From contig JBAQKY010000020.1 of NCBI GenBank assembly GCA_049301455.1, positions 10,184 through 74,183 of the forward strand: DNA of 64,000 nucleotides, in the 5' to 3' direction. Positions 337 to 46,160 of this stretch are shown one piece after another; within the stretch, counting starts at the first letter, position 1; each line of letters starts with the position of its first letter. Source of the stretch: Microgenomates group bacterium (GTDB lineage: Bacteria; Patescibacteriota; Microgenomatia; UBA8517). A program made the translations under genes and the position numbers. The notes beneath the pieces are model-generated. The model had not been told where the DNA came from. It saw only the letters and a program-made list of their open reading frames with translations, and did not search any database.

Positions 337-687
337 ATGCACAAAGAAATTAGAAAACAAATGGTATTAAGAAGAAAAAACTTCTTACCATCTTTGATTA
401 TTACCTTTGTATTACTCATGTCACTTATTACAATTGTTTACTTTACCGATCCCAATTCATCTTTTTTTGTATTTTTATTTTTTGTCAACTTTTTAATATT
501 ATTTATATTCTTTCTATCATTAATCCTTGGTAATTCTAGAAGAGGAATTGTAATTTCTATTTGTTTGACACTTTTTGTAATTTTGAGATATTTTGGAGTT
601 GGAAATATATTAAATGCCATATTACTTTCTGGCCTTGGTATAATAGCCCTAATATATCATGAACGCACTACAAAAACAGGTCACTAA
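337..687 (+). CDS. hypothetical small polytopic membrane protein
   Basis: 116-aa ORF with three to four hydrophobic helices. No recognisable motif. Confidence 0.35.
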   Translation: MHKEIRKQMVLRRKNFLPSLIITFVLLMSLITIVYFTDPNSSFFVFLFFVNFLILFIFFLSLILGNSRRGIVISICLTLFVILRYFGVGNILNAILLSGLGIIALIYHERTTKTGH

Positions 688-1024
688 TACTTTTTTTCAA
701 ACACTTGAGGATTTAAAAACCAAAGAAAATTTTGAGATATTTTTAAATGATTTTCTGACAGAAAAAGAATCAGATTCACTTACAAAACGCCTTGCAATCG
801 CCTATTGGCTTAAAAAAAGTAGAAATGATGAAAATATCAAAACAAATTTAAAAGCCACTCAAAAGGAAATTGATGAAGCAAAAGCCAAGTTGGATTCAAA
901 GGGTTATAAACTTGCAATCAAACTTATGGAAGCTGAAGAATGGGCAAATGTCTGGAGTGAAAAAATAAACAAGTTTCGACTTCATCGTAAAAAACTAGCT
1001 ACTAGACACGATAAACTTGTATAA
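659..1024 (+). CDS. TrpR-related YerC/YecD-family small DNA-binding protein (putative)
   Basis: 121 aa. FFQTLEDLKTKENFEIFLNDFLTEKE...RLAIAYWL resembles the YerC/YecD Trp-repressor-like family. Overlaps the upstream ORF by 29 nt. Confidence 0.4.
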   Translation: MNALQKQVTNTFFQTLEDLKTKENFEIFLNDFLTEKESDSLTKRLAIAYWLKKSRNDENIKTNLKATQKEIDEAKAKLDSKGYKLAIKLMEAEEWANVWSEKINKFRLHRKKLATRHDKLV

Positions 1025-2459
1025 TACCCCTATGGACAAAAAATATTACATTACCTGTGCAATACCATACGTCAATGCAGCTCCACATGTGGGACATGCC
1101 TTAGAGTTTGTACAAGGTGACGTTTTAGCTAGATATCACAGACTTTTGAGAGAAGATGTTGTTTTACTTTCTGGTGGTGATGAGAATGCTTTAAAAAATG
1201 TACAAGCTGCAGAAAATGCTGGTGTTCCTGTTCAAGAATTTGTTGACAAAAATAATAAATTGTTTGAAGAACTTATTAAAAACTTAAACTGTAAATTTGA
1301 TGTCTGGCAAAAAGGCAGTGACAAAGAAAAGCATTTCCCCTCCTCGCAAAAACTTTGGCAATTATGTGATAAGGCAGGAGATATATATCAAAAAGAATAT
1401 TCAGGACTTTACTGTGTTGGTTGCGAAACTTTTTATGAAAAAGAAGAATTAAACGAAAATGGAGAATGTTTCGAGCATGTTGGGAAAAAACTAGAACAAG
1501 TAAAAGAAAAAAATTACTTTTTTAAACTATCAAAATATCAGGACAAATTAATTGAATTAATAAAGAGTGATAAATTAAAAATTACACCTACCGAACGAAA
1601 AAACGAAGTTCTCTCCTTCCTAAAAGAACCACTTCAAGATATTTCAATCTCTCGTTCAAATGAAAGAGCAAAAAACTGGGGCGTGCCTGTACCAAACGAC
1701 TATTCCCAAAAAATTTATGTTTGGTTTGATGCCTTAAATATCTATCAAACAGGAGTTGGATTCAATTCAGATGAAGAAAAATATAAAAAATATTGGCCAG
1801 CTGACTTGCACGTAATTGGTAAAGGGATCTCAAGGTTCCATGCTGTTTATTGGCCTGCCTTTTTGATGTCTGCAAACTTGGAATTACCAAAAGAATTGTT
1901 TATTCATGGATATTTTACTGTTAATGGTCAAAAGATGAGTAAAACATTAGGGAACGTAATTGATCCTAACGATATTATAAACAAATATGGAACCGATGCC
2001 TTGAGATACTACTTTTTGGCTAAATTTTCACCATTTGCTGATGGAGACTTTTCAGAAGAAAAGTTAAAAGATGTTTACAATGCAGATCTTGCTAATGGTC
2101 TAGGCAATTTAATTTCAAGAATTGCTAGATTGTGCGAAACTTCAAGCTTTTCATTCGAATCAAAAGAAACAAATATCTATCCAGAAGTTGCAAAGGCTAT
2201 TGAAGAATATAGATTTGATACAGCTATGAAATTTATCTGGGATAAAATAAGCCAGATTGATCAAGATATAAATAAAAACGAGGTATGGAAATTAACAGGA
2301 GACAAGCTAAAAGAAAGGCTCCAATACTATTTAGAAGAAATAGCAGAAATTTCACTCAATCTAAAACCTTTCCTACCAAGTACGGTTGAAAAAATTGCAA
2401 AAGTATTTGGTGGCCCAGTAATAAAAATGCAGGAACCTCTATTCCCTAGAATAAAATAA
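1017..2459 (+). CDS. metG: methionyl-tRNA synthetase (short form, no C-terminal tRNA-binding domain)
   Basis: Class I HIGH motif (PHVGHA), KMSKS motif (KMSKTLGN) and CxxC zinc knuckle (CVGCETFYE). Overall MetRS N-terminal signature AIPYVNAAPHVGH. Confidence 0.9.
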   Translation: MYNTPMDKKYYITCAIPYVNAAPHVGHALEFVQGDVLARYHRLLREDVVLLSGGDENALKNVQAAENAGVPVQEFVDKNNKLFEELIKNLNCKFDVWQKGSDKEKHFPSSQKLWQLCDKAGDIYQKEYSGLYCVGCETFYEKEELNENGECFEHVGKKLEQVKEKNYFFKLSKYQDKLIELIKSDKLKITPTERKNEVLSFLKEPLQDISISRSNERAKNWGVPVPNDYSQKIYVWFDALNIYQTGVGFNSDEEKYKKYWPADLHVIGKGISRFHAVYWPAFLMSANLELPKELFIHGYFTVNGQKMSKTLGNVIDPNDIINKYGTDALRYYFLAKFSPFADGDFSEEKLKDVYNADLANGLGNLISRIARLCETSSFSFESKETNIYPEVAKAIEEYRFDTAMKFIWDKISQIDQDINKNEVWKLTGDKLKERLQYYLEEIAEISLNLKPFLPSTVEKIAKVFGGPVIKMQEPLFPRIK

Positions 2460-2460
2460 T

Positions 2461-3954
2461 ATGATCAGAAACTGGATAATTAAAAATGAAAAGACAGTGT
2501 TACGTTTTTTTGAAATCTTGCCAGGATTTTTTTCTTGGAATATGATTTTCTTACCTTATTGGGGTATATTCGTTTTTCCTAATTTTGTTGCATACTTTGT
2601 TCTACTTTTTAACGTTTATTGGTTTTATCAATCATTTTTAATTGCCATCACCTCAATTATTTCTCATACAAAAATTCAGGCAGCCATTAAATACGACTGG
2701 ATAACTGACTTAAAGACTTTTCCAGATTGGAAAAAAGTTCACAATATTGTTATTGTCCCTACGTATAAAGAACCTCTTCACATACTTGAAAGAACTATAG
2801 AATCACTTGCTAGCCAAACATTACCTACAAAGATGATGACTGTTATTTTAGCTATGGAAGAAAAAGAAGACAGAAAAGATAGAGACATGAAGTTTAATAG
2901 TTTAAAGAAAATGTTTGCTAAAAAGTTTAAATATTTTATTCAAACAAATCATAAATTAGTAGCAGGTGAAGCAGTTGGAAAAGCATCAAATGAAAAGTTT
3001 GCAGCCATTTATTTTAAAAATAATTACATTGATAAAGGATTAGTTGATATGGACTATTTAACAGTAACTAGTTGTGATGCAGATCATAAATACCACCCAA
3101 ACCACTTTGCATATCTATCATTTAAGTTTTTAGACAGTCCAACAAGATACAGGCACTTCTGGCAACCTGCTGTTATGTTTTACAACAATATTTGGGAATT
3201 ACCTGCAATCACAAGAGTCCCAAACACTTTTGGAACAATATTTAATCTTTCACAACTTCCAAGAAAAGATAGATTATTAAATACTGCTAACTATTCACTT
3301 TCGTTTAAACTACTTGACGAAGCTGGATACTGGGATGCAGACAAGATTCCAGAAGACTGGGGAATATTTTTCAAAGCATATTACAAAGTTAAAGGAGGTC
3401 TTGAAGTGGAACCAATTTACCTTCCACTTCACGCTGATGCAGCACAATCTACCTCTCACTGGAAAACAATTAAAAATCAGTATGAACAATATAAAAGATG
3501 GGCATGGGGAACATCTGATGATTCATGGATAATTAAAAATTATTTAGTAGACAGAGAAATTCCATTTTGGGATAAAACAACGAGAGTTTTGCATGTTATT
3601 TGGTCCCATTTTATGTGGCCTGTTAATTGGTTCATTGTAACAATTGGATTGACCTTGCCTACACTTATTAATCCTGCATTTGGAAGAACTGCATTGGGAT
3701 ATATGGTTCCAAAATTATCATCAATAATTTTAACTCTTTCACTTGGATTCTTCTTTGTCTTGTTCTTTGTAGATAATGTTTACAAACCAAAAAGGCCTGA
3801 TCATATATCTGTTTGGAGACAAATATTTATGCCATTTGAATTTATATTAATGCCAATTGCAGGATTTTTCTTTTCAGCTCTCCCTGGCCTTGATGCACAT
3901 ACAAGATTAATGTTGGGGAAATATATAGAATACAAGGTTACAGAAAAAGTATAA
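2461..3954 (+). CDS. processive family-2 glycosyltransferase (cellulose/chitin/hyaluronan-synthase-like), membrane-integrated
   Basis: N-terminal TM helices. TYKEP, SCDADH (DxD-like) and QYKRW (QxxRW processivity motif), then C-terminal TM helices. Confidence 0.7.
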   Translation: MIRNWIIKNEKTVLRFFEILPGFFSWNMIFLPYWGIFVFPNFVAYFVLLFNVYWFYQSFLIAITSIISHTKIQAAIKYDWITDLKTFPDWKKVHNIVIVPTYKEPLHILERTIESLASQTLPTKMMTVILAMEEKEDRKDRDMKFNSLKKMFAKKFKYFIQTNHKLVAGEAVGKASNEKFAAIYFKNNYIDKGLVDMDYLTVTSCDADHKYHPNHFAYLSFKFLDSPTRYRHFWQPAVMFYNNIWELPAITRVPNTFGTIFNLSQLPRKDRLLNTANYSLSFKLLDEAGYWDADKIPEDWGIFFKAYYKVKGGLEVEPIYLPLHADAAQSTSHWKTIKNQYEQYKRWAWGTSDDSWIIKNYLVDREIPFWDKTTRVLHVIWSHFMWPVNWFIVTIGLTLPTLINPAFGRTALGYMVPKLSSIILTLSLGFFFVLFFVDNVYKPKRPDHISVWRQIFMPFEFILMPIAGFFFSALPGLDAHTRLMLGKYIEYKVTEKV

Positions 3955-3956
3955 AG

Positions 3957-4484
3957 ATGTCAGAACAGACTAACATTGCAATTGACGTACGTAACCAAAA
4001 AAACCTAGAGAATCTGTTTCCAGGAGGTTTCAGGATAACAAGGGGACGGACATCGGGCTATGGATGTTCAGCTTTCGTATTAAATCATTTCTTTCCCAAA
4101 AGATTTTCACTTTACGATACCGATCCGGATATAAACAATACTTTCAAGGATGAAGGCAATAATCAATTTAAGGTTGTGGATGAATATGAAGTTAGCAAAG
4201 CAGAAAATGTACGCCACTCTGAACATTTCAAAAAGGACGCAGTAATTGCCTATGTTGACCTAACGCCAATTGAACTCTTTGGTAGAACCGTAGAAAACAA
4301 GACTGTGAACCATGTTGGCGTTATCGTAGAAGATCCAGAACAAGGTCTCTGTTTAGAATCAAAATTAAATCCTCAAAATTCTCCCCAAATAATAACTTTT
4401 GATCTCGGTGACATGTTGAGATATGAACAAGAAGCCGGTACCGTCACTCATATCCAAATATTAGAGGCAATTAAAAGTAAGTGA
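3957..4484 (+). CDS. hypothetical soluble protein
   Basis: 175-aa ORF, translationally coupled to upstream GT2 (stop/start 2 nt apart). No motif recognised. Confidence 0.45.
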   Translation: MSEQTNIAIDVRNQKNLENLFPGGFRITRGRTSGYGCSAFVLNHFFPKRFSLYDTDPDINNTFKDEGNNQFKVVDEYEVSKAENVRHSEHFKKDAVIAYVDLTPIELFGRTVENKTVNHVGVIVEDPEQGLCLESKLNPQNSPQIITFDLGDMLRYEQEAGTVTHIQILEAIKSK

Positions 4485-4505
4485 GTTTTATGCTAATATT
4501 AAATA

Positions 4506-5999
4506 GTGAAAAACTTCATCAAAAAATATTGGAATAAACTTATTTCTGTCATTGATACCCCAATTTGGCTTGAGATATTTTTTGTAGTAATAATTCTTCT
4601 TCGAATCCCTTCATTTTTTGAGCCATATTACTACGGTGATGAAATGATTTATTTAACACTTGGTGAAGGTGTTAGACAAGGAGTTCCACTTTATTCAGGG
4701 CTGCATGACAATAAACCACCGCTCCTCTACCTAACAGCTGCCATTTCAGGTAATGTTTTTATCTTTAAAGCATTACTTGCTGCATTTAATTTACTTGCCG
4801 TCTATCTTTTCTGGAAGCTTACAAAAATATTATTTCCAAAAAATGACAAGCTTAGTACAGTATCAACTGTTATTTTTGGAATATTTTCAACAATCCCATT
4901 ACTTGAAGGAAATATTGCAAATGCAGAAAACTTCATGATGGTTCCTGTTTTAATGGCTCTACTTTACGCATTAACACGTAAAGACAGTTTAAAGAATATG
5001 TTTTTTGTAGGTATTATGTTCTCTATTGGTTCGCTGTTTAAGATAGTTGCTGCTTTTGATATCTTAGGTTTAATTGCCTTTTGGTTAATATTTGTCAAAA
5101 AAGACAACTTTATAGAACTAATTAAAAAAGTAATATTTTTATCTCTTGGTTTTATAATACCAATCCTATTAACTTTTGTTTGGTACTTTTTAAGAGGTGC
5201 TTTGTCTGAATATGTGATTGCTGCCTATTTACAAAATTTTGGATATTTAAGCAGTTGGAAAAGATCAGCAACAGACATACCATTTTTGGTTAAAAATGCC
5301 CCACTCTTAATTCGCTTTGGAATAATGCTTTTTGGTTTCTTTGTTTTGTGGCTTTTAAGAAACAAATTGTCTAAACAATTTATCTTTGTTACTGCTTGGC
5401 TACTAGCAACACTTTTTGCAGTAACTTTATCAGAACGTCCATATCCACATTATTTTCTACAATCACTTGCTCCTGTTTCAATTCTTTTTGGGATGTTGTT
5501 TACCTTAAAAAATGTTGAACAGAGTTTAACTGTTATACCCCTTACACTTGCTTTCTTTGTACCTTTTTACTTTAAATTCTGGTATTACCAAACAGTTCCC
5601 TATTATGAAAGATTTATAAAATTTGCCACAAAACAAATAACAAGAGATGAATACTTTAATAAGTTTTCACCTCAACTGATAAACAACTATGAAATAGCAG
5701 ATTTCTTAGCAAAAACTGCCAAAAAGGAGGATCGCGTCTTCGTCTGGAGTAACGACTCATCAGCAATATATTCACTCTCAAGAAGACTGCCCCCAACTAA
5801 ATATGTTGCAGACTATCATTTCAGAGATTTCTCAACAGAAGAAATGACAATTGCAGAACTTAAAAAAACAATGCCAAAGTTTGTAGTTGTTACGCCCAAT
5901 TCATTTCCATTTGAGAGCCTTAACGTGTTTTTGGCAGAAAACTATTATATAATCTCAGAAATAGGTTCCTCACAAATATGGCTTTACTTAAACAAATAA
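4506..5999 (+). CDS. GT-C fold glycosyltransferase (ArnT/PMT-like, GT39/GT83-type polyprenyl-phosphate-sugar dependent)
   Basis: 497 aa with about 11 predicted TM helices. First extracytoplasmic loop has YYYGDEMIYLTLGEG, a DE motif typical of ArnT/PMT-type GT-C enzymes. Confidence 0.65.
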   Translation: MKNFIKKYWNKLISVIDTPIWLEIFFVVIILLRIPSFFEPYYYGDEMIYLTLGEGVRQGVPLYSGLHDNKPPLLYLTAAISGNVFIFKALLAAFNLLAVYLFWKLTKILFPKNDKLSTVSTVIFGIFSTIPLLEGNIANAENFMMVPVLMALLYALTRKDSLKNMFFVGIMFSIGSLFKIVAAFDILGLIAFWLIFVKKDNFIELIKKVIFLSLGFIIPILLTFVWYFLRGALSEYVIAAYLQNFGYLSSWKRSATDIPFLVKNAPLLIRFGIMLFGFFVLWLLRNKLSKQFIFVTAWLLATLFAVTLSERPYPHYFLQSLAPVSILFGMLFTLKNVEQSLTVIPLTLAFFVPFYFKFWYYQTVPYYERFIKFATKQITRDEYFNKFSPQLINNYEIADFLAKTAKKEDRVFVWSNDSSAIYSLSRRLPPTKYVADYHFRDFSTEEMTIAELKKTMPKFVVVTPNSFPFESLNVFLAENYYIISEIGSSQIWLYLNK

Positions 6000-6382
6000 A
6001 GAACCCACTATCAAGGTTAAAAGATGGTGTTGGGATTAAAATAGACTCCAGATTTGAAAAAATACCACTTAAATCACTTTTTTTGATATCAATTATTGTA
6101 AATATTTTGTTTATTTTGCTTGGACTAGTTAGTCAATTAGTATTACCACCTGAAGTTCCATTATTTTATGGATTGCCTAAAAATAGTGAGCAGCTTGCAC
6201 CATCTTTATTCATAATAGTACCGGCAGTAATTTCTTTATTCATAACAGTAGTAAATGCTGTAATATCTATAAACGTTGACAGTACCTACCTCAAAAAAAC
6301 TTTAGCCTTTGCATCAATATCAGTCTGTTTATTAAGCGTAATTGCCACATATAAAATTATATTTTTAGTAGGTTCTATATAA
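5978..6382 (+). CDS. small 3-4 TM membrane protein (possible GtrA-like or flippase accessory)
   Basis: 134 aa, hydrophobic, overlaps the GT-C gene end by 22 nt. Function not supported by motifs. Confidence 0.4.
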   Translation: MALLKQIKNPLSRLKDGVGIKIDSRFEKIPLKSLFLISIIVNILFILLGLVSQLVLPPEVPLFYGLPKNSEQLAPSLFIIVPAVISLFITVVNAVISINVDSTYLKKTLAFASISVCLLSVIATYKIIFLVGSI

Positions 6383-6386
6383 GAAT

Positions 6387-7415
6387 ATGGATAAATTGTT
6401 TTACTTATTGTTTCTTCCACTCTTAATCTCGGCATTTGTATCTTTTGTAATAACTCCTCTAGTTATTAAGTTTGCCAAAAGGTTAAAAATAATGGATGAT
6501 CCAAGGAAGAATAACCATCCCAAAGTAATCCACACCAAACCAATTCCTAGAGGTGGGGGTATCCCAGTATTTATTGCTATTTTAGTTACCTCACTTTTAT
6601 TCATACCAATCGACAAACATTTAATCTCAATACTTATTGGAGCAGGAATAATTTTTATAATGGGTTTTTTAGACGACAGATACAATCTAAATCCTTATGT
6701 TAGACTAATTGTTGGATTTATAGCAGCCTTTATTCCAATTTCTCAAGGTATTGGAATATCATTTCTAACAAACCCGTTTGGAGGAATAATAGATCTTTCA
6801 AACCCAATCATATCTGACATGTTTGCGTTAGTCTGGGTTGTCTTCATGATGAACATGGTAAATATGGGGGCAAAAGGAATTGATGGACAACTTTCAGGTG
6901 TCGCAGTCATATCAGCCTTAACAATTACAGCATTATCATTTTATTACTCTACAGACATAACCCAATGGCCTGTTATTCTAATTTCGTCAATTACAGCAGG
7001 CGCCTTTTTTGGTTTTTTTATCTGGCATAAGTACCCTCAAAAGATAATGCCTGGGTATGGTGGGTCAACACTTGCAGGATATATGCTGGCTATTGCCTCA
7101 ATACTGTCTACCACTAAGGTTGGTACTTTAATTGTTGTCTTAGGTATTCCGCTTATCGATACTGGATATGTAGTTATCAGAAGAGTTCTTTCTGGAAAAT
7201 CTCCTGTCTGGGGTGACAGAGGTCATCTTCACCATAAACTATTGGATTCGGGATTATCAAAAAAACAAGTCTCACAAGTCTATTGGTCACTAACTGCGAT
7301 ACTTGGAATTTTGGCTCTTAATTTGAATAGCACATATAAGTTGTATACAATTATAGGAGTATCGTTAGTTTTGGGTGGGGTAATTCTGTTCTTAACCAAA
7401 AAACAAAAAATATAA
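6387..7415 (+). CDS. polyprenyl-phosphate N-acetylhexosamine-1-phosphate transferase (GT4 MraY/WecA family)
   Basis: GFLDDRYNL, MVNMGAKGIDGQ (NxxNxxDGIDG) and 10-11 TM helices, typical of WecA/TagO/MraY. Confidence 0.8.
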   Translation: MDKLFYLLFLPLLISAFVSFVITPLVIKFAKRLKIMDDPRKNNHPKVIHTKPIPRGGGIPVFIAILVTSLLFIPIDKHLISILIGAGIIFIMGFLDDRYNLNPYVRLIVGFIAAFIPISQGIGISFLTNPFGGIIDLSNPIISDMFALVWVVFMMNMVNMGAKGIDGQLSGVAVISALTITALSFYYSTDITQWPVILISSITAGAFFGFFIWHKYPQKIMPGYGGSTLAGYMLAIASILSTTKVGTLIVVLGIPLIDTGYVVIRRVLSGKSPVWGDRGHLHHKLLDSGLSKKQVSQVYWSLTAILGILALNLNSTYKLYTIIGVSLVLGGVILFLTKKQKI

Positions 7416-8353
7416 TGTTTAATTTAATTTTAGAAGCAATCAAGATAGCAAGACTTATTCACTGGGTTAAAAACCTAGCCATCTTTGGGGCGCTTCTCTT
7501 AACTGGCACTTTGTATGAAACTGGGCTATTTAAAGACGTTTTGGAGGCCTTTTTTGCCTTCTCCTTTGCAACATCAGCAACTTACATATTTAATGACATA
7601 ATTGATGCAGCTGCAGACAGACTTCATCCTGTAAAAAAGAATAGACCAATTGCCGCAGGTAAATTACCAATGTTTATAGCCATACTTGAACTTATTGGTT
7701 TTGTTGTGCTTTCATTGGCTATGGCAGCCTACATTAATCAATTATTATTTACGCTTATCCTTGTATATCTTGGTATGCAAATTTTTTATAGTTTGGGTTT
7801 AAAAAACATACCTGTTATAGACATATTAATAATAGCTTCAGGATTTATTATCAGAGTCTATGCTGGAGCTTTTGTAATTGATGCTCATCTTTCAGTTTGG
7901 TTTTTACTTTGTGTTGTTTCTGCTTCCCTCTTCCTTGCTGCTGGAAAAAGAAGGTCAGAAATTAATCTACTTGAAGCGATATCTGGTGGAACCAGAAAAA
8001 GTTTAACTAAATATTCAACAGAACTCCTAAACAGTTATGTCACTATGTTTGGAAACGCCACATGGATGAGTTGGAGTTTATATACATTTTTTGAGAGTCC
8101 AAAAGCTTCACTTGATTTTTGGATGGTCTTGGCTGAAGTCTCAAGAGCAACAACAATTGATAAACTGATGATGCTTACCATTCCCGTAGTTATTTTTGGA
8201 ATTATGCGTTATGAGGCACTTATTTTTGAAGGTAAATCAGAAGCTCCAGAAAAATTATTATTAACTGACAAGGCTCTAATCATTGCAGTTGGCCTTTGGA
8301 TTGCACTTGTATATTGGATTATATATTCAGGAGTATCAGTGAGTGGGATTTAA
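7415..8353 (+). CDS. UbiA-family prenyl-phosphate phosphoribosyltransferase (decaprenyl-phosphate 5-phosphoribosyltransferase-like)
   Basis: NDIIDAAADRLHPVKKNRPIAAGKL matches NDxxDxxxD plus the DRxHPxKxxRPIAaG signature I recall for Rv3806c-type DPPR synthases. Polytopic. Confidence 0.65.
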   Translation: MFNLILEAIKIARLIHWVKNLAIFGALLLTGTLYETGLFKDVLEAFFAFSFATSATYIFNDIIDAAADRLHPVKKNRPIAAGKLPMFIAILELIGFVVLSLAMAAYINQLLFTLILVYLGMQIFYSLGLKNIPVIDILIIASGFIIRVYAGAFVIDAHLSVWFLLCVVSASLFLAAGKRRSEINLLEAISGGTRKSLTKYSTELLNSYVTMFGNATWMSWSLYTFFESPKASLDFWMVLAEVSRATTIDKLMMLTIPVVIFGIMRYEALIFEGKSEAPEKLLLTDKALIIAVGLWIALVYWIIYSGVSVSGI

Positions 8354-8360
8354 ACAATTA

Positions 8361-8606
8361 TTAAATTCTCATTCTTTTATTAACACCATTTGCAATTCCA
8401 CCGAGTTCATTTTCCTGAGGACGAGACACTGCTCTGAAAATATTATCAATTGAAACGGCAAGTGGATTAAATTTAATTTCAACCACTGGTTGACCAGCAT
8501 CTATACTATCTGTACCAACCGCTGAAACCCATACGCCGTCTAAACCATCGATTAGTGGCTCAATTTCATGTCGTGTTCCCCATACTGTAACGGTTTGTTT
8601 TTTCAT
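8361..8606 (-). CDS. hypothetical protein (within GC-rich foreign patch)
   Basis: 81-aa ORF in a region with visibly higher GC than its surroundings. No motif. Confidence 0.3.
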   Translation of the reverse strand: MKKQTVTVWGTRHEIEPLIDGLDGVWVSAVGTDSIDAGQPVVEIKFNPLAVSIDNIFRAVSRPQENELGGIANGVNKRMRI

Positions 8607-8692
8607 AATTTTATATTTGTAACTTTGAGGGGTATTATAGAATTGAAATCTATTTTATACCCCTCACGGTTACTATCTTGTCTTGTTATTTT

Positions 8693-8899
8693 TTAGAAAA
8701 TGATTTCCCCAATCATTACAAATCCAACAAGCGCTATCACTAAGCACATCGCTAAGCTAAAAAGGCTCAAGAGTACCGCAAAGAAACGGATCAGACCCCT
8801 TTCTTCTTCAACTCGCCTTATACCTCGCAGCGCTTGTCTTACTTCGATTATCGTTCTCAAATTGTTTACAAATTCGTCATTACCACCATCATTCGACAT
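8693..8899 (-). CDS. hypothetical small membrane protein (GC-rich patch)
   Basis: 68 aa with a C-terminal TM helix. A plus-strand ORF 8700-8951 overlaps it. Minus strand chosen because all neighbours are minus. Confidence 0.25.
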   Translation of the reverse strand: MSNDGGNDEFVNNLRTIIEVRQALRGIRRVEEERGLIRFFAVLLSLFSLAMCLVIALVGFVMIGEIIF

Positions 8900-9052
8900 A
8901 TCAATTCCTTTCAGTTTATTAGGCTTACAAATCCTGAGGCTATTGCCATAATTATTGCACCGACTGGCACATAGACCATGGAAAAGTACATTCCCATACC
9001 CATGACGATGAATGGCTCGTCCTCTGCAAACGATAAAAGGACATACTCACCC

Positions 9053-9244
9053 TTAAGCCCAAAAAAAAAGAGCTATACTACCAATAACAAAAGGTAACAA
9101 TACCCACGAACTTTCAGTGTTTGGACCCCACCACGAAGTAATGACAAAACAGACAAAGCAAACCAACCACAGCCAGAATCTATGTTTGTCATATTTCTCA
9201 GACAATTCATAAATCTTTTCAAAAAATTTATCTCTTTTATTCAT
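9053..9244 (-). CDS. hypothetical small 2-TM protein (GC-rich patch)
   Basis: 63 aa, FWLWLVCFVCFVITSWW...LLPFVIGSIALFFW. Confidence 0.3.
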   Translation of the reverse strand: MNKRDKFFEKIYELSEKYDKHRFWLWLVCFVCFVITSWWGPNTESSWVLLPFVIGSIALFFWA

Positions 9245-9409
9245 CTTGCACCTCCATGCAAAAGTTTCAGATATGATTCATTAATAGTCATCACCTACTA
9301 ATGTCAAACAAGATAGTAAATCAAAGAACAGATCTCAACTTATAGGTAGAGAGGAAGCATAATTTTAGAATAGTTGTCTAAGATTAGGCTTCCCTCTTTC
9401 TTGCACTGT

Positions 9410-9634
9410 TTAGTATGGACGTTGGACAATCATGTCCGTATCGTGCTCGGAAACGCCTTTTTTCTTCGCTTCCAGTCCTTGCAATTCCATTTTCTTTTTT
9501 TCAATTCTGTTTCTCTCCTCCATTGCTTTAGCTACAGCACTAATAGCATCGGCAACTTTATCAATCGAGAGAACCAAACCTGTACCCAACATCAAAGCTA
9601 CAACAAGCCTCCACAGTTCAAAATTCATTCTCAT
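9410..9634 (-). CDS. hypothetical membrane-anchored coiled-coil protein (GC-rich patch)
   Basis: 74 aa with an N-terminal TM helix then a charged helix (EERNRIEKKKMELQGLEAKKKG). Overlapping plus-strand ORFs were judged to be shadows. Confidence 0.3.
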   Translation of the reverse strand: MRMNFELWRLVVALMLGTGLVLSIDKVADAISAVAKAMEERNRIEKKKMELQGLEAKKKGVSEHDTDMIVQRPY

Positions 9635-9764
9635 CTCCTCTCAACTAGATGTGTGCAAGAAACTCTACCTATGGATATCCTATAACTAGTTGAATGGATT
9701 ATCTTGACACAATTTGGACAATTTGGATTATTTATTCAGAAATTTTTGAATGTGGAATTTAAAA

Positions 9765-9998
9765 TTACCATCCCTCAGGAAGAGCGGTTGAAGCTGCGCC
9801 TAACGCCTGCGCCAACATCCTCTTTGTTCTTCCATCAAACGGTCCAGCAGCAGTCAAAGCGTCATCCCTTAGATCTTCCATTAACTTTCCTATTGAAAAC
9901 TCACCATCCTTAGTTCTGGTTTCGTCAGGAAGTCTTGGACGATAACCTTTACGGCTACCGTGTCGAATTAGCTTTTCACCAAATTTTCTAATTTCCAC
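9765..9998 (-). CDS. hypothetical protein, GTG start; possibly the C-terminal half of a frameshifted gene
   Basis: 77 aa. Starts with GTG and overlaps the upstream ORF by 11 nt across an A-rich homopolymer tract (AAAAGAAAAAG). Confidence 0.3.
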   Translation of the reverse strand: MEIRKFGEKLIRHGSRKGYRPRLPDETRTKDGEFSIGKLMEDLRDDALTAAGPFDGRTKRMLAQALGAASTALPEGW

Positions 9999-10314
9999 TT
10001 TTTCTTTTGAGTTTCAGTTTACAAACCTTAACACCTTCTTCCATGTACTCTTCCATGTAATATCCGGCATCACTATCTAAAAATTCTGAGAGTTGCTCAG
10101 GCGCGCTTGCTCCATCAACAGTGATTATTGTGTGTGCCATACGATTCGTACCCATATCATCTGCTGATATTTGAGTTGATAATTCATCCCCAAGTATTAC
10201 ATGCATCCCTTCAACGCCCCATCGATTTTTAAGCCCAACTCTTTGACCAACAGGGATTTCTTCCCCCATAGACATACATGTTGGACAAACTGAACCACCA
10301 AATTCTTTCATCAT
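9988..10314 (-). CDS. hypothetical protein, CxxC-containing (GC-rich patch); possibly the N-terminal half of a frameshifted gene
   Basis: 108 aa with N-terminal CPTC. GC clearly above the genome background. Confidence 0.3.
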   Translation of the reverse strand: MMKEFGGSVCPTCMSMGEEIPVGQRVGLKNRWGVEGMHVILGDELSTQISADDMGTNRMAHTIITVDGASAPEQLSEFLDSDAGYYMEEYMEEGVKVCKLKLKRKSGN

Positions 10315-10394
10315 AACTTTATTTTAACCTCAAACATATAAACATCTTGACTTATTTTGACATTTTTATGACACAAGAGTAAAATACTATAGGT

Positions 10395-11423
10395 ATGGAA
10401 AGTTTAACTACGTGGGAATTTTCTTTGGAAACTGAAGCAAAAAGAATTCTGCATACTGCTTACCAAACATATGTTGGCTTTTATAAAAGTAATGGTTTTA
10501 TTGTGCTGCCTAAAAACATAAAAACATTTAATTCTAATATTGTCATCCTTCCTAAAATAGATTTTAATTCAATACCTAAGTTTTGGAAAAGAGTTTCTAA
10601 AATAGATATCTATGCAAACCCAATGGTAATTGATAAAAATTTAATTGCAGATTTTAAAAATCTCCTTTCTAAATACAATCTTGAAACACCAAACTACAAA
10701 AAAACAATGCAAGTGTGGGCAAAGGCCGAAAAAGAGGTTATCAATGCAATTTACGACGTATTGCCAGACAAAAAAGACAAAATTAAAAAAATAGTAATCA
10801 ATCCAACAAAGACAGGAACCGTTTGTAGTTTTGATTGGGACAATCAAGGTAATTTTTTGATACTTCTTCGAGATGATCAAAATATTCACAAAATAACAGA
10901 GGCATTAGTTACGTCACTAACCCGAGAAGATATTTATGAAAAACTAAGTGGTCTATGGCAAGAAAGCGAAATTATTTCAGATTTTTTAATTACACAAACA
11001 AAAATAGCAGATGTCTTAAAAAAATATGAGCCAATTGATATGTATTCCCCTACAATGAAAGGTGTCCGCAGTAAAGATGTTGGTAACTTATTAAAAATAA
11101 GTAGTGACTATTACAAAGAACTTAGTATCCCAAATTTTGACACTCCTTTTTCATTAAATGGTTTAACACCAGAGGTAAACAAAAAACCAATTTTAGATTT
11201 AACAAACAACGAGAAACAAATTCTGTATTTATTAATTAAAAACTCAAACAATCTTGTTTCATTTGATCAAATTTCAGATATCATATTTGTAAATGAAGAA
11301 AAATTCAGCCTTTTTGCCCTAGCCAAGTTTATACAAAGACTTAGAGAAAAATTAGAAAAAAACGGTATTTCAGGAAGCTTCATACAAACTCTGCGTGGTA
11401 AAGGATATTTGCTAAAGAATTAA
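10395..11423 (+). CDS. orphan OmpR/PhoB-type winged-helix DNA-binding protein (trans_reg_C domain at C-terminus, no receiver domain)
   Basis: C-terminal 90 aa read LTNNEKQILYLLIKNSNNLVSFDQISDIIFVNEE...FIQRLREKLEKNG...IQTLRGKGYLL, the OmpR/CadC wHTH signature ending (T/R)GxGY. The N-terminal 250 aa are unrecognised. Confidence 0.55.
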   Translation: MESLTTWEFSLETEAKRILHTAYQTYVGFYKSNGFIVLPKNIKTFNSNIVILPKIDFNSIPKFWKRVSKIDIYANPMVIDKNLIADFKNLLSKYNLETPNYKKTMQVWAKAEKEVINAIYDVLPDKKDKIKKIVINPTKTGTVCSFDWDNQGNFLILLRDDQNIHKITEALVTSLTREDIYEKLSGLWQESEIISDFLITQTKIADVLKKYEPIDMYSPTMKGVRSKDVGNLLKISSDYYKELSIPNFDTPFSLNGLTPEVNKKPILDLTNNEKQILYLLIKNSNNLVSFDQISDIIFVNEEKFSLFALAKFIQRLREKLEKNGISGSFIQTLRGKGYLLKN

Positions 11424-11758
11424 GAACGACGCCCTCTCATGGCTTCAAAAATACCCGGCTGCTCTGCCTCAATTATCCTTACTGTTTCAGTACCTGCAAG
11501 CACAAGTCCTTCGGCCAGCACAATATCTGGAATTGGAGTTCTAGCCTCGAGTATTTTTTCTCTTTCTCTAAAATCTTGCCACAACTGACCCTCATTAACA
11601 TCTGGGTTCTCACGAAGATACGTGTCAATAGTTGCTCGTGCGGCAGCCCTTGATTTCGGAGACACTTCAAAAGCTCCATCACAAGGTGGTGAAGAAATTT
11701 CAGTTAAAGCAACCCATATTGGATCGAATCCTGTTGACATATCAATATGATCGCACAA
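11420..11758 (-). CDS. hypothetical protein (GC-rich, compositionally foreign)
   Basis: 112-aa ORF at about 47% GC, versus about 33% in the flanking genes. Rich in Arg/Ala/Glu, unlike host proteins. Confidence 0.35.
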   Translation of the reverse strand: MCDHIDMSTGFDPIWVALTEISSPPCDGAFEVSPKSRAAARATIDTYLRENPDVNEGQLWQDFREREKILEARTPIPDIVLAEGLVLAGTETVRIIEAEQPGIFEAMRGRRS

Positions 11759-11798
11759 ATTTGAAATTTATCTTGACATCATTTTGACATTTGAAGTT

Positions 11799-12704
11799 TT
11801 AAATCTTAGTTACAAATTCACTACTTACCCACCCTTCAACTTCATTTGTAGCACCTTCATTTGTAGTACTAACAATTTTTATTTTGTACCAGCTTGCATT
11901 TTCACCTTCTTCAAGAATTTCATATTCTTCATCTGGTTTAACTTGTGCAATTTCTGGGAATCCTGTGTTAGCCCCACTTCTAACTCTTAGAAATCCAGTA
12001 TCTGTTTTATTTATCTTTATTCTACCCAAATTAGGTGTTTCTGCTGTTTCTCCCAAAACTGCAAGTTGTTCTTGTTCTTTTGGTTTATCTGACTTTGCAA
12101 GTTTAACTGAAGCTGTTAATTTATAACCTGCATAGACTCTGATTGGAAGTGATTTTTCTAGATATTTATCTGAAGAAACCACTAATGTATGATCTCCTGC
12201 AGGAATTTTTACACGAAGTGGTGTGTATCCATATATCTTTCCATCAATTGACACTTGGGCATTATCAGGTACAGAAACAACAGTAACATATGATTCTAGT
12301 CCTCCAAGCTTATCAAATGAAACAACTACTCCACTTGATGATTCTTCAGTTTCTCTGAAGACTCTTTTAACAATTGTTCTAATACCTGGTACTAACTTAA
12401 TTTTTGTTTCATAATCATCAAGAACCACACCTTCTACTGGGTCAGGTTTAATTCGAAGTAGAATTTCTCCTGATTCTCTATTTGCTTCATATGGTGTTTT
12501 ACCAACTTCTACATCATTAATATAAACAGTTGCAATTGGATCTGATTCAACAAGTATTCCTGACTGCTGGTCTTTAAAAACACCCAAAAACAAAAGAGCT
12601 GCAAAACCGACTACAACTATTCCAACTAAAGCTAATATTGTACTAATAATCTTTTTCTTCATGTCTAAAGTGTACCAGATTTTAAAAAAACTCTTGACAA
12701 ACAA
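11799..12704 (-). CDS. membrane-anchored PEGA-domain protein with C-terminal bacterial SH3 domain
   Basis: N-terminal signal anchor. Two PEGA-like units (VYINDVEVGKTPYEAN and VSIDGKIYGYTPLRVKIPAGDHTLVVS). C-terminal SH3b-like stretch (ASWYKIKIV...EGWVSSEFV). Confidence 0.55.
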   Translation of the reverse strand: MFVKSFFKIWYTLDMKKKIISTILALVGIVVVGFAALLFLGVFKDQQSGILVESDPIATVYINDVEVGKTPYEANRESGEILLRIKPDPVEGVVLDDYETKIKLVPGIRTIVKRVFRETEESSSGVVVSFDKLGGLESYVTVVSVPDNAQVSIDGKIYGYTPLRVKIPAGDHTLVVSSDKYLEKSLPIRVYAGYKLTASVKLAKSDKPKEQEQLAVLGETAETPNLGRIKINKTDTGFLRVRSGANTGFPEIAQVKPDEEYEILEEGENASWYKIKIVSTTNEGATNEVEGWVSSEFVTKI

Positions 12705-14269: not shown

Positions 14270-15076
14270 TTATTTAACTTCATAAAAATATTCATATGGG
14301 GTTAAGGAAATATAAAACCACATTGGAATTTGTTTTACTGGAACTGATTTTACAAAAGAACTAAATTGACTTTGATATGCATAGACCGCCTTAACTTTAT
14401 TTATAACTCCAGATATACCGACCCAAATTTTGAAGCTTGGTGATTTTCTACTAAATTTAAAATTTTTATCTTTTGCCATTTGTTCAGGAAGTGAAAGTTT
14501 TTTGAAAAGTTTCTCAGGAGTTGATGTGTACCAAAGATGGATATTTTCAAATTCATTATTAATTAATTCTGTAGCAACTTTTGAGAGTACTATATGGTCC
14601 GGATGACCGTAGCCCCCTGATTCATCATAGGTAATAACCAAGTCAGGATCAATCTCTTTTATTGTTTGTCTGACATCATCAATCAAATCGTCTTTGAATT
14701 GATCAACTCCATTATCTGGATAATCTTTTAGAGTTAACTTTTTAATACCTAATATCTTTGCAACATTTTGTGCTTCGATAGATCTTATATATTTTAAATT
14801 ATCATCAAAATGTGCATCATCATTCCCTTTTTCACCTTTTGTTAAAATAATCCAATTAATTTCTATTCCTTTATCTACAAATTGAGTGATCGTCCCACCT
14901 AACGAGTTTGCTTCATCATCAGGGTGAGGAAAAATAATTAGTACTTTCTTTATATTATTAAAATCATTAATATTTTTAGTTGGGACTTTTAGGTCATTTG
15001 CTTCGTTAAAACCGTATAGCCAAAAACAGATAAATAAAATGAATAGTATAGCTATCAAGATAATTATAATCTTCAT
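14270..15076 (-). CDS. PIG-L/LmbE-family N-acetylglucosaminyl deacetylase, membrane anchored
   Basis: N-terminal TM, then VLIIFPHPDDEANSLGG (HPDDE metal-binding motif) and GHPDH later. Confidence 0.8.
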   Translation of the reverse strand: MKIIIILIAILFILFICFWLYGFNEANDLKVPTKNINDFNNIKKVLIIFPHPDDEANSLGGTITQFVDKGIEINWIILTKGEKGNDDAHFDDNLKYIRSIEAQNVAKILGIKKLTLKDYPDNGVDQFKDDLIDDVRQTIKEIDPDLVITYDESGGYGHPDHIVLSKVATELINNEFENIHLWYTSTPEKLFKKLSLPEQMAKDKNFKFSRKSPSFKIWVGISGVINKVKAVYAYQSQFSSFVKSVPVKQIPMWFYISLTPYEYFYEVK

Positions 15077-22641: not shown

Positions 22642-23277
22642 ATGGATTTACTTCAAGCACTAGATACTCTTGCTCTACTTTTTGAACAATGGGGTTATCC
22701 AATAATATTCTTAGGAAGTTTAATTGAAATCACTCCACTTGGCTGGGCAGTTCCAGGTGGTGCTATTTTGTTAGTTGCTGGTTATTTATCAAATGGAAAT
22801 AGCAACTTACCTCTTATTCCAATTATCATTTGGGGGACATTTGGGACATGGGTTGCATTTATACTTGCATATATTTTAGGCAGTAAAACTGGTATGTGGT
22901 TGGTTAACAAACTGCACCAACAAAACAATGCTGCTTTGGCAAAACGAGTATTAAAAAACAACGGGCCTGCAATTCTTACTACTTCGATGATGGCAAACTT
23001 AACTAGGTTTTGGATTAGTTATATTGCAGGAGTTGAAAAATACAACCTAATTAAGTTTAACTTATATGCCTTTTTTGCTTCCCTAAGTTGGGTATCAATG
23101 ATTGTACTTTTGGGATACTTTGCAGGATATGAAAAAGAAAATTTAAGAAAAATAACAAGCAGTATTGGTGTAGTTGCTTGGGTACTATTAGCCGTTGCCG
23201 TATTTGTAATTTTTAAATCAATCAAAAAAGAGTATAAAAAGTTTAAAGAGGACGAGCCAACAACAGAAAAGATATGA
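22642..23277 (+). CDS. DedA/SNARE-associated (VTT-domain) membrane protein
   Basis: WGYPIIFLGSLIEITPLGWAVPGG...TSMMANLTRF; 4-5 TM helices. Confidence 0.8.
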   Translation: MDLLQALDTLALLFEQWGYPIIFLGSLIEITPLGWAVPGGAILLVAGYLSNGNSNLPLIPIIIWGTFGTWVAFILAYILGSKTGMWLVNKLHQQNNAALAKRVLKNNGPAILTTSMMANLTRFWISYIAGVEKYNLIKFNLYAFFASLSWVSMIVLLGYFAGYEKENLRKITSSIGVVAWVLLAVAVFVIFKSIKKEYKKFKEDEPTTEKI

Positions 23278-25825: not shown

Positions 25826-26875
25826 ATGCAAATAATTCCAGAAAATGACAAGGCAGTAGATAGTGCTGTTAAAGCGTTAGAAAAAGGTCAGCTAGTTTTT
25901 ATGGCCACAGAAACTGTCTATATTGCTGCAGTTGATGCAACAGACGAAACTGCCGTAAAAAAATTAGTATCATTCAAAAATCGCCCATTTGGTAAACCGT
26001 TTTCTGTTGGTGTAACAGACATTGAGATGGCTGAAAAATATGTTGTTTTAAATGAAACTGCTAAAAATTTATACAAAAGATTTCTACCTGGACCTGTAAC
26101 TGTTGTTTCTACTGGAACACACAATGTGGCAAATGGTGTAGAAGCAGAAAATGGAACACTTGGAATTAGAATACCTGACTACAAATTTTTCCAAGAAGTA
26201 TGTAAAAAATTTAAAAAACCAATTACAGCAACAAGTGCTAATGCTAGTTATCAGAGAAGACCATATAAACTTTTAGACATCTTAGATAACATTTCAGAAA
26301 AACAAAAAGCATTAATTGATTTAATGATTGATGCTGGAGAACTCCCACATAATGAACCATCAACAGTTATTGATACCACACTTGATGATGAAGCAGTTAT
26401 TTTGAGACAAGGAGAAATAAAAATAAAAGACAAAAACGAAGTTCTTTCAAGGTCAGAGGAAAACACTCAAAACATAGCCAAAGAGCTTTGGCAAAAATAT
26501 GAAGATTATGCTGGAAAAAGAGCAATTATTTATGCACTTGAAGGACAAATGGGGGCAGGTAAAACACAATTTGTAAAAGGGTTGGCAAAAGCCATGGGAA
26601 TTGATGAAAACGTTACTTCCCCATCATATGATTTACTAAATACGTACGGCCTTCTAACACATATTGATACTTGGAGAATGATTGATCCTAATCAAGAATT
26701 ACAAAGTTTGGACATTAAAAGTTTATTAAAAAATGACTCAGTTATTGCAATTGAATGGGCAGACAGATCTATAGATGAAATTAAGAATTACTCAGATGAT
26801 GCAATCATCATTTGGATAAAAATAGCATATGGCAAATCAGAAAACGACAGAATTATTAACTGGGGCAATATATGA
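25826..26875 (+). CDS. fused t6A biosynthesis protein: N-terminal TsaC/YrdC (threonylcarbamoyl-AMP synthase) plus C-terminal TsaE (P-loop ATPase)
   Basis: N-terminal half: KGQLVFMATETVYIAAVDA...NRPFGKPFSV (YrdC/Sua5). C-terminal half: ALEGQMGAGKTQFVKGLAKAMGI...VTSPSYDLLNTY...IDTWRM (TsaE Walker A plus SPTF/DxYR-like motifs). Confidence 0.8.
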   Translation: MQIIPENDKAVDSAVKALEKGQLVFMATETVYIAAVDATDETAVKKLVSFKNRPFGKPFSVGVTDIEMAEKYVVLNETAKNLYKRFLPGPVTVVSTGTHNVANGVEAENGTLGIRIPDYKFFQEVCKKFKKPITATSANASYQRRPYKLLDILDNISEKQKALIDLMIDAGELPHNEPSTVIDTTLDDEAVILRQGEIKIKDKNEVLSRSEENTQNIAKELWQKYEDYAGKRAIIYALEGQMGAGKTQFVKGLAKAMGIDENVTSPSYDLLNTYGLLTHIDTWRMIDPNQELQSLDIKSLLKNDSVIAIEWADRSIDEIKNYSDDAIIIWIKIAYGKSENDRIINWGNI

Positions 26876-27933
26876 TAATACTTGCAATTGATACATCTTG
26901 TGATGAAACAGCAGTCGCAATTACTCAGAATACCGAGATAGTTTCGAATGTTGTTTGGTCCCAAGCAACCCTCCATTCTAGCTTCGGCGGAGTAATGCCC
27001 AGCCTCGCACAAAGACAGCATGAGGAACGTATAGATTGGGTAGTTGAGAAAGCTATTAAGCAGGCAGGTGTCCCAATCGAAAAAGTTGATGCTATAGCTG
27101 TGACAATTGGCAACGGCTTAGGAATTGCGCTTGGAGTAGGTATAAACAAAGCAAAAGAACTAGCAATTAAATATAAAAAACCACTTATACCTGTTAGTCA
27201 TACTGAGGCCCACCTACTTTCATCATTTTGCGAACCTTTATCAAAAAATTCAGAAGATAAAAGATCAAACATTACCTTCCCTGCCCTCGGATTAGTTCTC
27301 TCTGGAGGCACCACAGTATTAGCTTTAATTAAAAATATTGGTGAATATGAAATATTAGCTGAGACCTCTGATGATGCTTTAGGAGAAGCATTAGATAAAG
27401 GTGCAAGATTATTAGGATTGGGTTACCCAGGCGGTGCAATATTAGAAAAACTTGCAAAGACTGGAGATGCAAAGAAATACAAACTCCCATTACCTTTGCA
27501 AAATGATGTAATTAAAAATAGGTTTAGTTACTCTGGTTTAAAAACAGCCTTTGTTAGATTGTTTGATTCGATCAAGGATCCAAACAAACAAGATGTTGCA
27601 GACCTAGCAGCAAGTTTCCAATCAACTGCTTTTAAGCATATTGAAAAGATTTTAGAGTATCAAATTAATGCACTTGGTCCACAAACCACTACTCATAATT
27701 TGTTGTTTGGTGGTGGTGTTGCAAACAATATAGAAATTAAAAAAAGACTTCGTAAATTATTAAAAAAATACGATATTAAACTTCATGTTCCTTATACAAA
27801 AAAATTAAATGGTGACAATGCAGGGATGATTGGAGTTTGTGCACATTTGAAGAACAAGAACACAGAATTAAAACAATATTTTAACTATGAATCAGTGGAT
27901 AGAAACCCAAGATTAAAACTTTCAACTTCGTGA
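26872..27933 (+). CDS. tsaD: tRNA N6-adenosine threonylcarbamoyltransferase TsaD (Kae1/YgjD family)
   Basis: ILAIDTSCDETAVAI, metal-binding HTEAH, C-terminal GGGVANN. Start overlaps the upstream stop (ATGA). Confidence 0.85.
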   Translation: MIILAIDTSCDETAVAITQNTEIVSNVVWSQATLHSSFGGVMPSLAQRQHEERIDWVVEKAIKQAGVPIEKVDAIAVTIGNGLGIALGVGINKAKELAIKYKKPLIPVSHTEAHLLSSFCEPLSKNSEDKRSNITFPALGLVLSGGTTVLALIKNIGEYEILAETSDDALGEALDKGARLLGLGYPGGAILEKLAKTGDAKKYKLPLPLQNDVIKNRFSYSGLKTAFVRLFDSIKDPNKQDVADLAASFQSTAFKHIEKILEYQINALGPQTTTHNLLFGGGVANNIEIKKRLRKLLKKYDIKLHVPYTKKLNGDNAGMIGVCAHLKNKNTELKQYFNYESVDRNPRLKLSTS

Positions 27934-43394: not shown

Positions 43395-43397
43395 GTT

Positions 43398-45254: not shown

Positions 45255-45266
45255 GTCTTTTTTTTG

Positions 45267-46133: not shown

Positions 46134-46160
46134 ATTTATATTTTATATTAGCAATTTCAT

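Follow-up and report, generated by a model that had tools for sequence, protein, structure and literature searches.

A stretch of 64,000 nucleotides from a Microgenomates group bacterium (GenBank assembly GCA_049301455.1, contig JBAQKY010000020.1, positions 10,184 to 74,183 of the forward strand), hereafter the window, contains a conserved envelope-glycan locus. At its core are four genes, which encode a GT-C fold glycosyltransferase (GT-C), a small membrane protein designated tm134, a polyprenyl-phosphate N-acetylhexosamine-1-phosphate transferase (PNPT), and a UbiA-family protein assigned as a polyprenyl-phosphate 5-phosphoribosyltransferase (PPPRS). A family 2 glycosyltransferase (GT2) is encoded further upstream. 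The nearest relatives of the window are Candidatus Woesebacteria. Judged from sequence, the locus probably encodes a pathway for pentofuranose glycosylation outside the cytoplasm, in the form that Woesebacteria have of it.

By its sequence, the UbiA-family protein is a member of the polyprenyl-phosphate 5-phosphoribosyltransferase family. It scores 217.8 bits with the NCBIfam model NF008978 (decaprenyl-phosphate phosphoribosyltransferase, DPPRS), for which the curated cut-off is 207, and 215 and 160 bits with two sister DPPRS models. All other prenyltransferase models, those for UbiA, MqnP, heme o synthase, chlorophyll synthase (ChlG), and GGGP-type enzymes, give 44 bits at most. In a search of the PDB, Rv3806c of Mycobacterium tuberculosis (8j8j) was matched over PPPRS residues 3-299 with an E-value of 2e-39, whereas the next family, archaeal UbiA (AfUbiA), reached just 1e-5. 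The identity between PPPRS and Rv3806c is 40% across the 200 aligned positions counted.

In the cryo-EM structure of Rv3806c, N73 and D77 are the Mg ligands, and K28, Y70, Q135, and Y157 are the 5-phosphate/ribose ligands that set the enzyme apart from prenyltransferases; the lysine and arginine cluster for pyrophosphate consists of R22, K87, R90, and K143 together with Y138 (PMC10994848). In the alignment, R13, K19, Y57, N60, D61, D64, and D68 of PPPRS correspond to R22, K28, Y70, N73, D74, D77, and D81 of Rv3806c, and K74, R77, Q122, Y125, K130, and F144 correspond to K87, R90, Q135, Y138, K143, and Y157. Thus 12 of the 13 PRPP (phosphoribosyl pyrophosphate) and Mg-binding positions are identical, and the sole change, from Y157 to F144, also occurs in some mycobacteria (PMC10994848). 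The NDxxDxxxD motif is kept (N60, D61, D64, D68), and all 13 mapped positions are invariant across 21 Woesebacteria homologs. PPPRS would be expected to convert PRPP and polyprenyl phosphate to polyprenyl-phosphate-ribose-5-phosphate. No PPPRS homologs were found in the viral contigs of IMG/VR.

A quinone or aromatic prenyltransferase is ruled out for this protein by the difference in scores (218 versus at most 44 bits) and by the preserved phosphoribose ligands. A preliminary description of this stretch had proposed a DPPRS-like enzyme, and the proposal is borne out by the profile scores, the PDB matches, and the ligand mapping, in which neither a grouping with quinone prenyltransferases nor a loss of the signature was seen. 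The accompanying idea that such a pathway is unusual outside Actinobacteria is not supported: PRPP-derived pentofuranose pathways have been demonstrated or predicted in several other bacteria (PMC11127046), and the GenBank name of the protein is already decaprenyl-phosphate phosphoribosyltransferase.

Conservation and enzymes of the core locus

One genome per GTDB species was scanned, and at least 286 genomes were found to encode a relative. The best 80 loci were compared; the identity of their UbiA proteins to that of the window ranges from 59 to 83%, and all are Woesebacteria/Microgenomates-like. In 77 of the 80 loci the genes for GT-C, tm134, PNPT, and PPPRS directly follow one another in this order on one strand, and the other three loci are cut by contig ends. 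Such constancy across species indicates that the arrangement is not due to chance. Upstream of the core, the relatives carry TrpR, MetRS (methionyl-tRNA synthetase), and GT2 genes; downstream, a PEGA/SH3 gene is the usual convergent neighbour and directly follows the UbiA gene in most. Since the core is contiguous and the gap between GT2 and GT-C varies, the locus is best described as a conserved core of four genes and, upstream of it, a GT2 that is likewise conserved, the two parts being separated by a variable slot. Of the six-gene cluster proposed in the preliminary description, the conserved unit is thus the core; the GT2 gene lies across the variable slot, and the 175-aa gene within this slot is a singleton ORFan of deviant GC content.

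The median identity to the window proteins over the 80 loci is 68% for GT2, 64% for PNPT, 63% for PPPRS, 50% for GT-C, and 46% for MetRS. The envelope genes are under strong constraint, and their higher conservation relative to MetRS suggests an important envelope function. Many records of metagenome-assembled genomes (MAGs) with Woesebacteria-type loci (L007, L011, L013, L017, and others) are titled "uncultured Gammaproteobacteria bacterium", and one is titled "Alphaproteobacteria bacterium". With PPPRS proteins 59-83% identical to that of the window and the same synteny, these proteobacterial titles appear to be mislabelled.

The GT-C protein has the multi-transmembrane (TM) fold of its class. 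Its homologs match Pfam PMT_2, its model resembles Pmt4, Pmt1, and Pmt2, and its structure is nearer to GPI-MT-I, ALG3, and ArnT than to AftA, AftB, AftD, and EmbA. The helix at residues 20-37 (TM1) is followed by a Y43-G-D45-E46 motif, with conservation of at least 97% across 73 homologs; D45 and E46 are putative catalytic residues. The enzyme class given in the preliminary description thus holds, and it is a new assignment for a protein annotated as "hypothetical".

The similarity of GT-C to protein mannosyltransferases also bears on another explanation, in which GT-C would place a pentofuranose on Ser/Thr residues of a type IV pilin or other surface protein and PNPT would serve a separate glycan. 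A DPPRS ortholog and a GT-C enzyme have been proposed for pilin O-glycosylation in Pseudomonas aeruginosa (PMC11127046), and in one relative of the window a pilin-like N_methyl gene lies a few kilobases upstream. However, no pilin gene adjoins the locus in the window, and both the invariant coupling of PNPT with PPPRS and the glycan-type content of the slot in relatives (WbaP-like transferase, GT2, ABC transporter) favour a lipid-linked glycan. Protein glycosylation is considered unlikely.

PNPT matches Pfam PF00953 with 85.5 bits (cut-off 27). Its scores with TIGR02380 (wecA, 105 bits, cut-off 326) and TIGR00445 (mraY, 53 bits, cut-off 192) are below both equivalog cut-offs, so that the protein is WecA-like and not an assignable ortholog. 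This agrees with the earlier placement of the 342-aa protein among WecA/MraY-type enzymes; its scores are nearer to WecA than to MraY. In the PDB it is matched by MraY (5jnq, E-value 1e-11). The residues of the DD, NxxNxxxxxDG, and HxHH motifs (D96, D97, N156, N159, D166, G167, and H280-L-H-H283) are at least 97% conserved in 78 homologs. The stop codon of PNPT overlaps the start of PPPRS, so the two genes are probably translationally coupled; the invariant coupling of PNPT with PPPRS is a new observation.

The small membrane protein of the core, tm134, occurs in every locus that reaches its position and is always encoded between GT-C and PNPT. It has an invariant LPPxxPxxYG loop and an invariant N93, with no convincing match in Pfam and no match in the PDB. 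On these grounds, GtrA, SMR, and MATE flippases were rejected as its family. A library of 1.84 billion proteins contains 377 tm134 representatives; the best 150 on the list, each 84-169 aa long, are stand-alone proteins without exception, so that no informative fusion is offered among these matches. The protein could be a flippase or a subunit. New, too, is the finding of such an orphan at a place that in known systems belongs to the flippase gene.

In the GT2 protein the motifs D206-A-D208, E298-D299, and Q343-Y-K-R346-W347 are flanked by TM helices, as in the architecture of cellulose and hyaluronan synthases. Across 51 homologs, the conservation of D206, D208, E298, D299, Q343, and R346 is 97% or higher, and R346 and W347 are invariant in the homolog alignment. 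PF13632 matches 15 of 21 GT2 homologs (best E-value 2.4e-10), with the window protein itself below threshold; on PF00535 the latter scores just 16.8 bits. It has no sequence match in the PDB. The alignment behind the AlphaFold2 model was shallow, its members sharing 68-88% identity with the window protein, and the model is of low quality (pLDDT 55); its top Foldseek matches are GT2 enzymes including HAS and BcsA, with weakly informative TM-scores of about 0.3. The protein is probably a GT2 of synthase architecture. Of the processive QxxRW enzyme described earlier, the motifs are real, and the protein may be processive.

A putative pentofuranose pathway and its alternatives

In the pathway proposed here, PPPRS would act on the cytoplasmic face and move 5-phosphoribose from PRPP onto polyprenyl phosphate, a step predicted from the family to which the enzyme belongs. 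The 5'-phosphate would then be taken off by an enzyme encoded outside the window, giving polyprenyl-phosphate-ribofuranose. This lipid-linked sugar would be flipped across the membrane, a role for which tm134 is the only, and speculative, candidate in the locus. On the outer face GT-C, whose fold is of the appropriate kind, would hand the pentofuranose to an acceptor; both its donor and its acceptor are predictions. PNPT most likely supplies polyprenyl diphosphate-linked N-acetylhexosamine (polyprenyl-PP-HexNAc) as the primer of the acceptor glycan. Building or extending this glycan may be the task of the synthase-type GT2 encoded upstream, an assignment that is the weakest link of the scheme.

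The identity of the sugar depends on the epimerases. The Pfam scan covered window open reading frames (ORFs) of at least 120 aa, leaving out a few that are short or overlap larger genes. Among these scanned ORFs, neither DprE1 (FAD_binding_4/ALO) nor DprE2 (adh_short) was detected, and in three Pfam-annotated relatives neither these two families nor PAP2, HAD phosphatase, GtrA, SMR, or MATE proteins were found within 10 kb of the locus. As no DprE1/E2-type epimerase was detected in the window, the predicted sugar is ribofuranose and not arabinofuranose. The analogy with the mycobacterial decaprenyl-phospho-arabinose (DPA) pathway drawn in the preliminary description is not supported, DprE1, DprE2, and the phosphatase being undetected in the window, and ribofuranose becomes the default prediction.

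A true DPA pathway of the mycobacterial type would require DprE1/DprE2-like enzymes encoded elsewhere to make polyprenyl-phosphate-arabinofuranose, with GT-C as the arabinofuranosyltransferase. PPPRS is an ortholog of the first enzyme of that pathway, and the view is limited to 64 kb of the genome. Against this stand the missing epimerase families and PAP2, both among the scanned window ORFs and within 10 kb of the locus in the three relatives, and the structure of GT-C, which is closer to enzymes other than the Aft and Emb arabinosyltransferases named above. Such a pathway is regarded as highly improbable.

Several points weigh against the proposed pentofuranose pathway. Among the scanned ORFs of the window there is no 5'-phosphatase (HAD-PRP or PAP2) and no SMR, MATE, or GtrA-type flippase, and tm134 matches no transporter family in Pfam or the PDB. 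The known three-component systems do not include a PNPT, which makes its role here a guess. The GT2 gene is up to 5 kb from the core in some species and may be functionally independent. Finally, the compared genomes are all of one lineage, so that the synteny could partly represent shared ancestry.

The last two points lead to the explanation that these genes are neighbours by inheritance and not parts of one pathway: GT2, and possibly PNPT, would have unrelated envelope functions, and only PPPRS and GT-C, or not even those, would cooperate. All 80 loci come from the Woesebacteria/Microgenomates, the wider synteny (TrpR, MetRS, PEGA, M23 peptidase, GroEL) is kept as well, and the distance from GT2 to the core ranges from 0 to 5 kb. 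Yet the core of four genes remains unbroken, with overlaps, as genes come and go on both flanks; GT2 is within 21 nt of GT-C in 11 species; and the pairing of PPPRS with GT-C has been functionally proven elsewhere (PMC11127046). Little probability is given to this explanation.

A bolder form of the pentofuranose pathway can also be considered, in which the four-gene block is a self-contained minimal line. It would build a PRPP-fed ribofuranose wall glycopolymer on a polyprenyl-PP-HexNAc primer, like mycobacterial arabinan, and tm134 would be a new lipid-linked pentose flippase or an obligatory subunit of GT-C. This form is quite doubtful. If true, an episymbiont of minimal metabolism could do without nucleotide-sugar pathways and draw on a central metabolite for its main surface polymer.

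Gene layout, variable slot, and other features of the window

The window has a GC content of about 34% and carries dnaA, dnaN, rnpA, one tmRNA, and two tRNAs. The genes of the locus and its neighbours are listed in the table below.

Table. Genes of the envelope-glycan locus and flanking genes in the window
Feature	Positions	Strand	Remarks
ORF at start of co-directional run	337-687	+	
TrpR-like gene	659-1024	+	Upstream part of co-directional run
MetRS, conserved upstream neighbour	1017-2459	+	PF09334, 322 bits
GT2, membrane-embedded	2461-3954	+	497 aa; directly after MetRS
p175, window-specific ORFan in variable slot	3957-4484	+	175 aa
GT-C fold glycosyltransferase, predicted polyprenyl-phosphate-sugar donor, extra C-terminal alpha/beta domain	4506-5999	+	497 aa; GTG start
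tm134, orphan small membrane protein, ~3 TM segments	5978-6382	+	134 aa
PNPT, WecA/TagO-like	6387-7415	+	342 aa
PPPRS/DPPRS, UbiA superfamily	7415-8353	+	312 aa
PEGA + SH3_3 envelope protein, conserved convergent downstream neighbour	11799-12704	-	PF08308, PF08239

The six same-strand, tightly coupled ORFs from GT2 to PPPRS are present as they were first described, and both motifs quoted then are found in the translations, QYKRW in the GT2 protein and NDIIDAAADRLHPVKKNRPIAAG in the UbiA-family protein. The junctions are +2 nt (GT2/p175), +21 (p175/GT-C), -22 (GT-C/tm134), +4 (tm134/PNPT), and -1 (PNPT/PPPRS), and the PPPRS and GT-C genes, on the same strand, have 1.4 kb between them. The co-directional run includes these six genes, as stated earlier; its real start is further upstream and takes in the ORF at 337-687, the TrpR-like gene, and MetRS. 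Because the stop codon of MetRS is 1 nt ahead of the GT2 start, MetRS and GT2 are probably co-transcribed. A scan for terminators and promoters gave uninformative counts at the level of chance. Six identical proteins are recorded in GenBank (MFZ3301431-MFZ3301436) from a "Microgenomates group bacterium" MAG; their names, in gene order, are GT2 family protein, hypothetical (three times), MraY family glycosyltransferase, and decaprenyl-phosphate phosphoribosyltransferase.

The slot between GT2 and GT-C differs among species. In the window it is occupied by p175, which has no match in Pfam, NCBIfam, or PHROG and no homologs among 86 related loci. Its 90% cluster has a single member, and its GC content is 37.7% compared with 31.8% for each neighbour. 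It is a window-specific ORFan and not a conserved member of the locus. The Cys/His spacing in GYGCSAF...NHVGVIV may resemble that of an NlpC/P60-type papain fold. Searches with tblastn gave no match for this protein in phages and none for GT2 in plasmids.

Both GT2 and GT-C are visible in 56 loci. They are within 21 nt of each other in 11 of these loci, in 26 the slot holds an extended-SDR NDP-sugar enzyme encoded on the opposite strand, and in the other 19 different inserts of up to 5 kb part the two genes. Among the inserted genes are those for a second PMT_2-like GT-C, an EamA transporter (only in some relatives), a phosphoglycosyl transferase of WbaP type, and a small GT2, as well as ABC transporter and toxin-antitoxin genes. 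Variation of this kind between species is as expected of a site of surface-glycan diversification. The slot SDR of the relatives, which is not in this window, was considered as a polyprenyl-phosphate-pentose epimerase and left unassigned, as its NCBIfam matches are generic extended-SDR matches below threshold (RmlB 139 bits, UDP-xylose/4-keto-pentose synthase 103, GalE 98, ArnA 93).

The second GT-C is in the slot of 17 species (for example L078:5568-6956, L050:5736-7088, and L001:15633-16895). This paralog is about 420-460 aa long, has the motif WGDEAFS behind TM1, and shows no detectable similarity to the GT-C of the core (phmmer E > 1e-5). Its presence suggests a second extracytoplasmic glycosylation step in these species.

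Downstream of the core, a window-specific insert of 3.4 kb (8354-11798) separates PPPRS from the PEGA/SH3 gene, the two being adjacent in most relatives. It contains small minus-strand ORFs of 63-112 aa without a family and encodes a protein of 342 aa whose C-terminal part is a winged helix of the OmpR type (Trans_reg_C; phrog_731). At 8354-10394 the GC content is 37.9% and the GC skew is strongly negative. A phage origin of the 175-aa gene or of this insert was rejected, as there is no PHROGs match save the winged-helix domain of the regulator.

Further genes of the window may belong to the same glycan pathway: a Wzy_C/O-antigen-ligase-like protein at 34020-35132 (-), an 845-aa DUF4012 protein at 30914-33451 (-), a PIG-L family deacetylase at 14270-15076 (-), and a DedA/VTT-domain protein at 22642-23277 (+), whose family has been connected with the recycling of polyprenyl phosphate.

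Other observations are separate from the locus. A set resembling a type IV secretion system (T4SS) or conjugation apparatus lies at 40680-47210 (-), next to the replication origin. It encodes a P-loop ATPase resembling TraG/VirB4 (43398-45254), a protein of the PrgI family that carries a CarboxypepD_reg domain (46161-47210), and two large familyless proteins of 904 aa (40680-43394) and 288 aa (45267-46133). A 349-aa ORF at 25826-26875 (+) is an unusual fusion of Sua5/TsaC (PF01300) with TsaE (PF02367), and TsaD follows directly at 26872-27933, forming a compact t6A operon. The tmRNA at 61436-61819 (-) has a long predicted tag peptide of 21 aa, AKLKNYASMFNYAFAPQPAFV.

Relation to described systems

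Of the systems described so far, the three-component pentofuranose pathway of Kelly et al. 2024 (PNAS) comes closest, and mycobacterial DPA synthesis and the pilin arabinosylation of P. aeruginosa are its relatives. Its components are a PPPRS, to which a phosphatase may or may not be fused, a small flippase, and a GT-C enzyme. Biochemical proof came from Citrobacter youngae (O1/O2 ORF15-ORF14-ORF12), and the pathway has been predicted in Stenotrophomonas, Rathayibacter, Burkholderia, E. coli, Rhizobium, Xanthomonas, Bacillus, and a phage (PMC11127046). PRPP-derived polyprenyl-phosphate-pentofuranose pathways have also been demonstrated or predicted in Pseudomonas (PMC11127046).

The Woesebacteria locus shares with this system a UbiA-family PPPRS, which is predicted to lead from PRPP to polyprenyl-phosphate-ribofuranose, together with a GT-C enzyme in one locus, an optional SDR enzyme in some members, and a context of glycan diversification. 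The differences are several. PPPRS here is a protein without an additional domain and thus lacks the fused HAD phosphoribose-phosphatase of Citrobacter ORF15. No EmrE/ArnE-like or GtrA-like flippase is present in the locus, and tm134 takes the conserved position. The GT-C is PMT_2/ArnT-like, without evidence for membership of GT136; for the Citrobacter enzyme ORF12, the CDD call is EpsG-like (PMC11127046). PNPT is invariantly coupled to the PPPRS gene, whereas the described systems have no PNPT. Moreover, the host is a bacterium of the candidate phyla radiation (CPR) with no known lipopolysaccharide.

In the mycobacterial DPA pathway (Rv3806c, Rv3807c, DprE1/DprE2, Emb/Aft), the first enzyme is orthologous to PPPRS and, like it, has no phosphatase fused to it. 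Mycobacteria also have a PNPT of the WecA type, which primes their acceptor polymer, and GT-C enzymes for which the lipid-linked pentose is the donor. The system of P. aeruginosa Pa5196/PA7 (the PPPRS PSPA7_6246 region and the GT-C enzyme TfpW) is similar in being non-actinobacterial and in combining a stand-alone PPPRS with a GT-C. Its D-arabinofuranosylation of pilin, however, involves DprE1/DprE2 homologs and a pilin target, neither of which was seen here. The modification of lipid A by ArnT with undecaprenyl-phosphate-L-Ara4N is different: its donor is made from a UDP-sugar by the GT2 enzyme ArnC and not by a UbiA protein dependent on PRPP, there are no ArnB, ArnC, or ArnD homologs here, and CPR bacteria are without lipid A.

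A literature search for a PRPP-derived pentofuranose pathway in CPR, Patescibacteria, or Woesebacteria returned no papers, and the host lineage is thus new for a pathway combining PPPRS with GT-C. Since the mechanism was established in other bacteria in 2024 and PPPRS was already named in GenBank, known biology is extended here and not overturned. CPR/Patescibacteria attach to host cells by means of their cell surfaces, about which very little has been established. For these surfaces the locus provides a concrete prediction: a lipid-linked ribofuranose donor derived from PRPP, and a surface glycan or glycoprotein that would bear pentofuranose.

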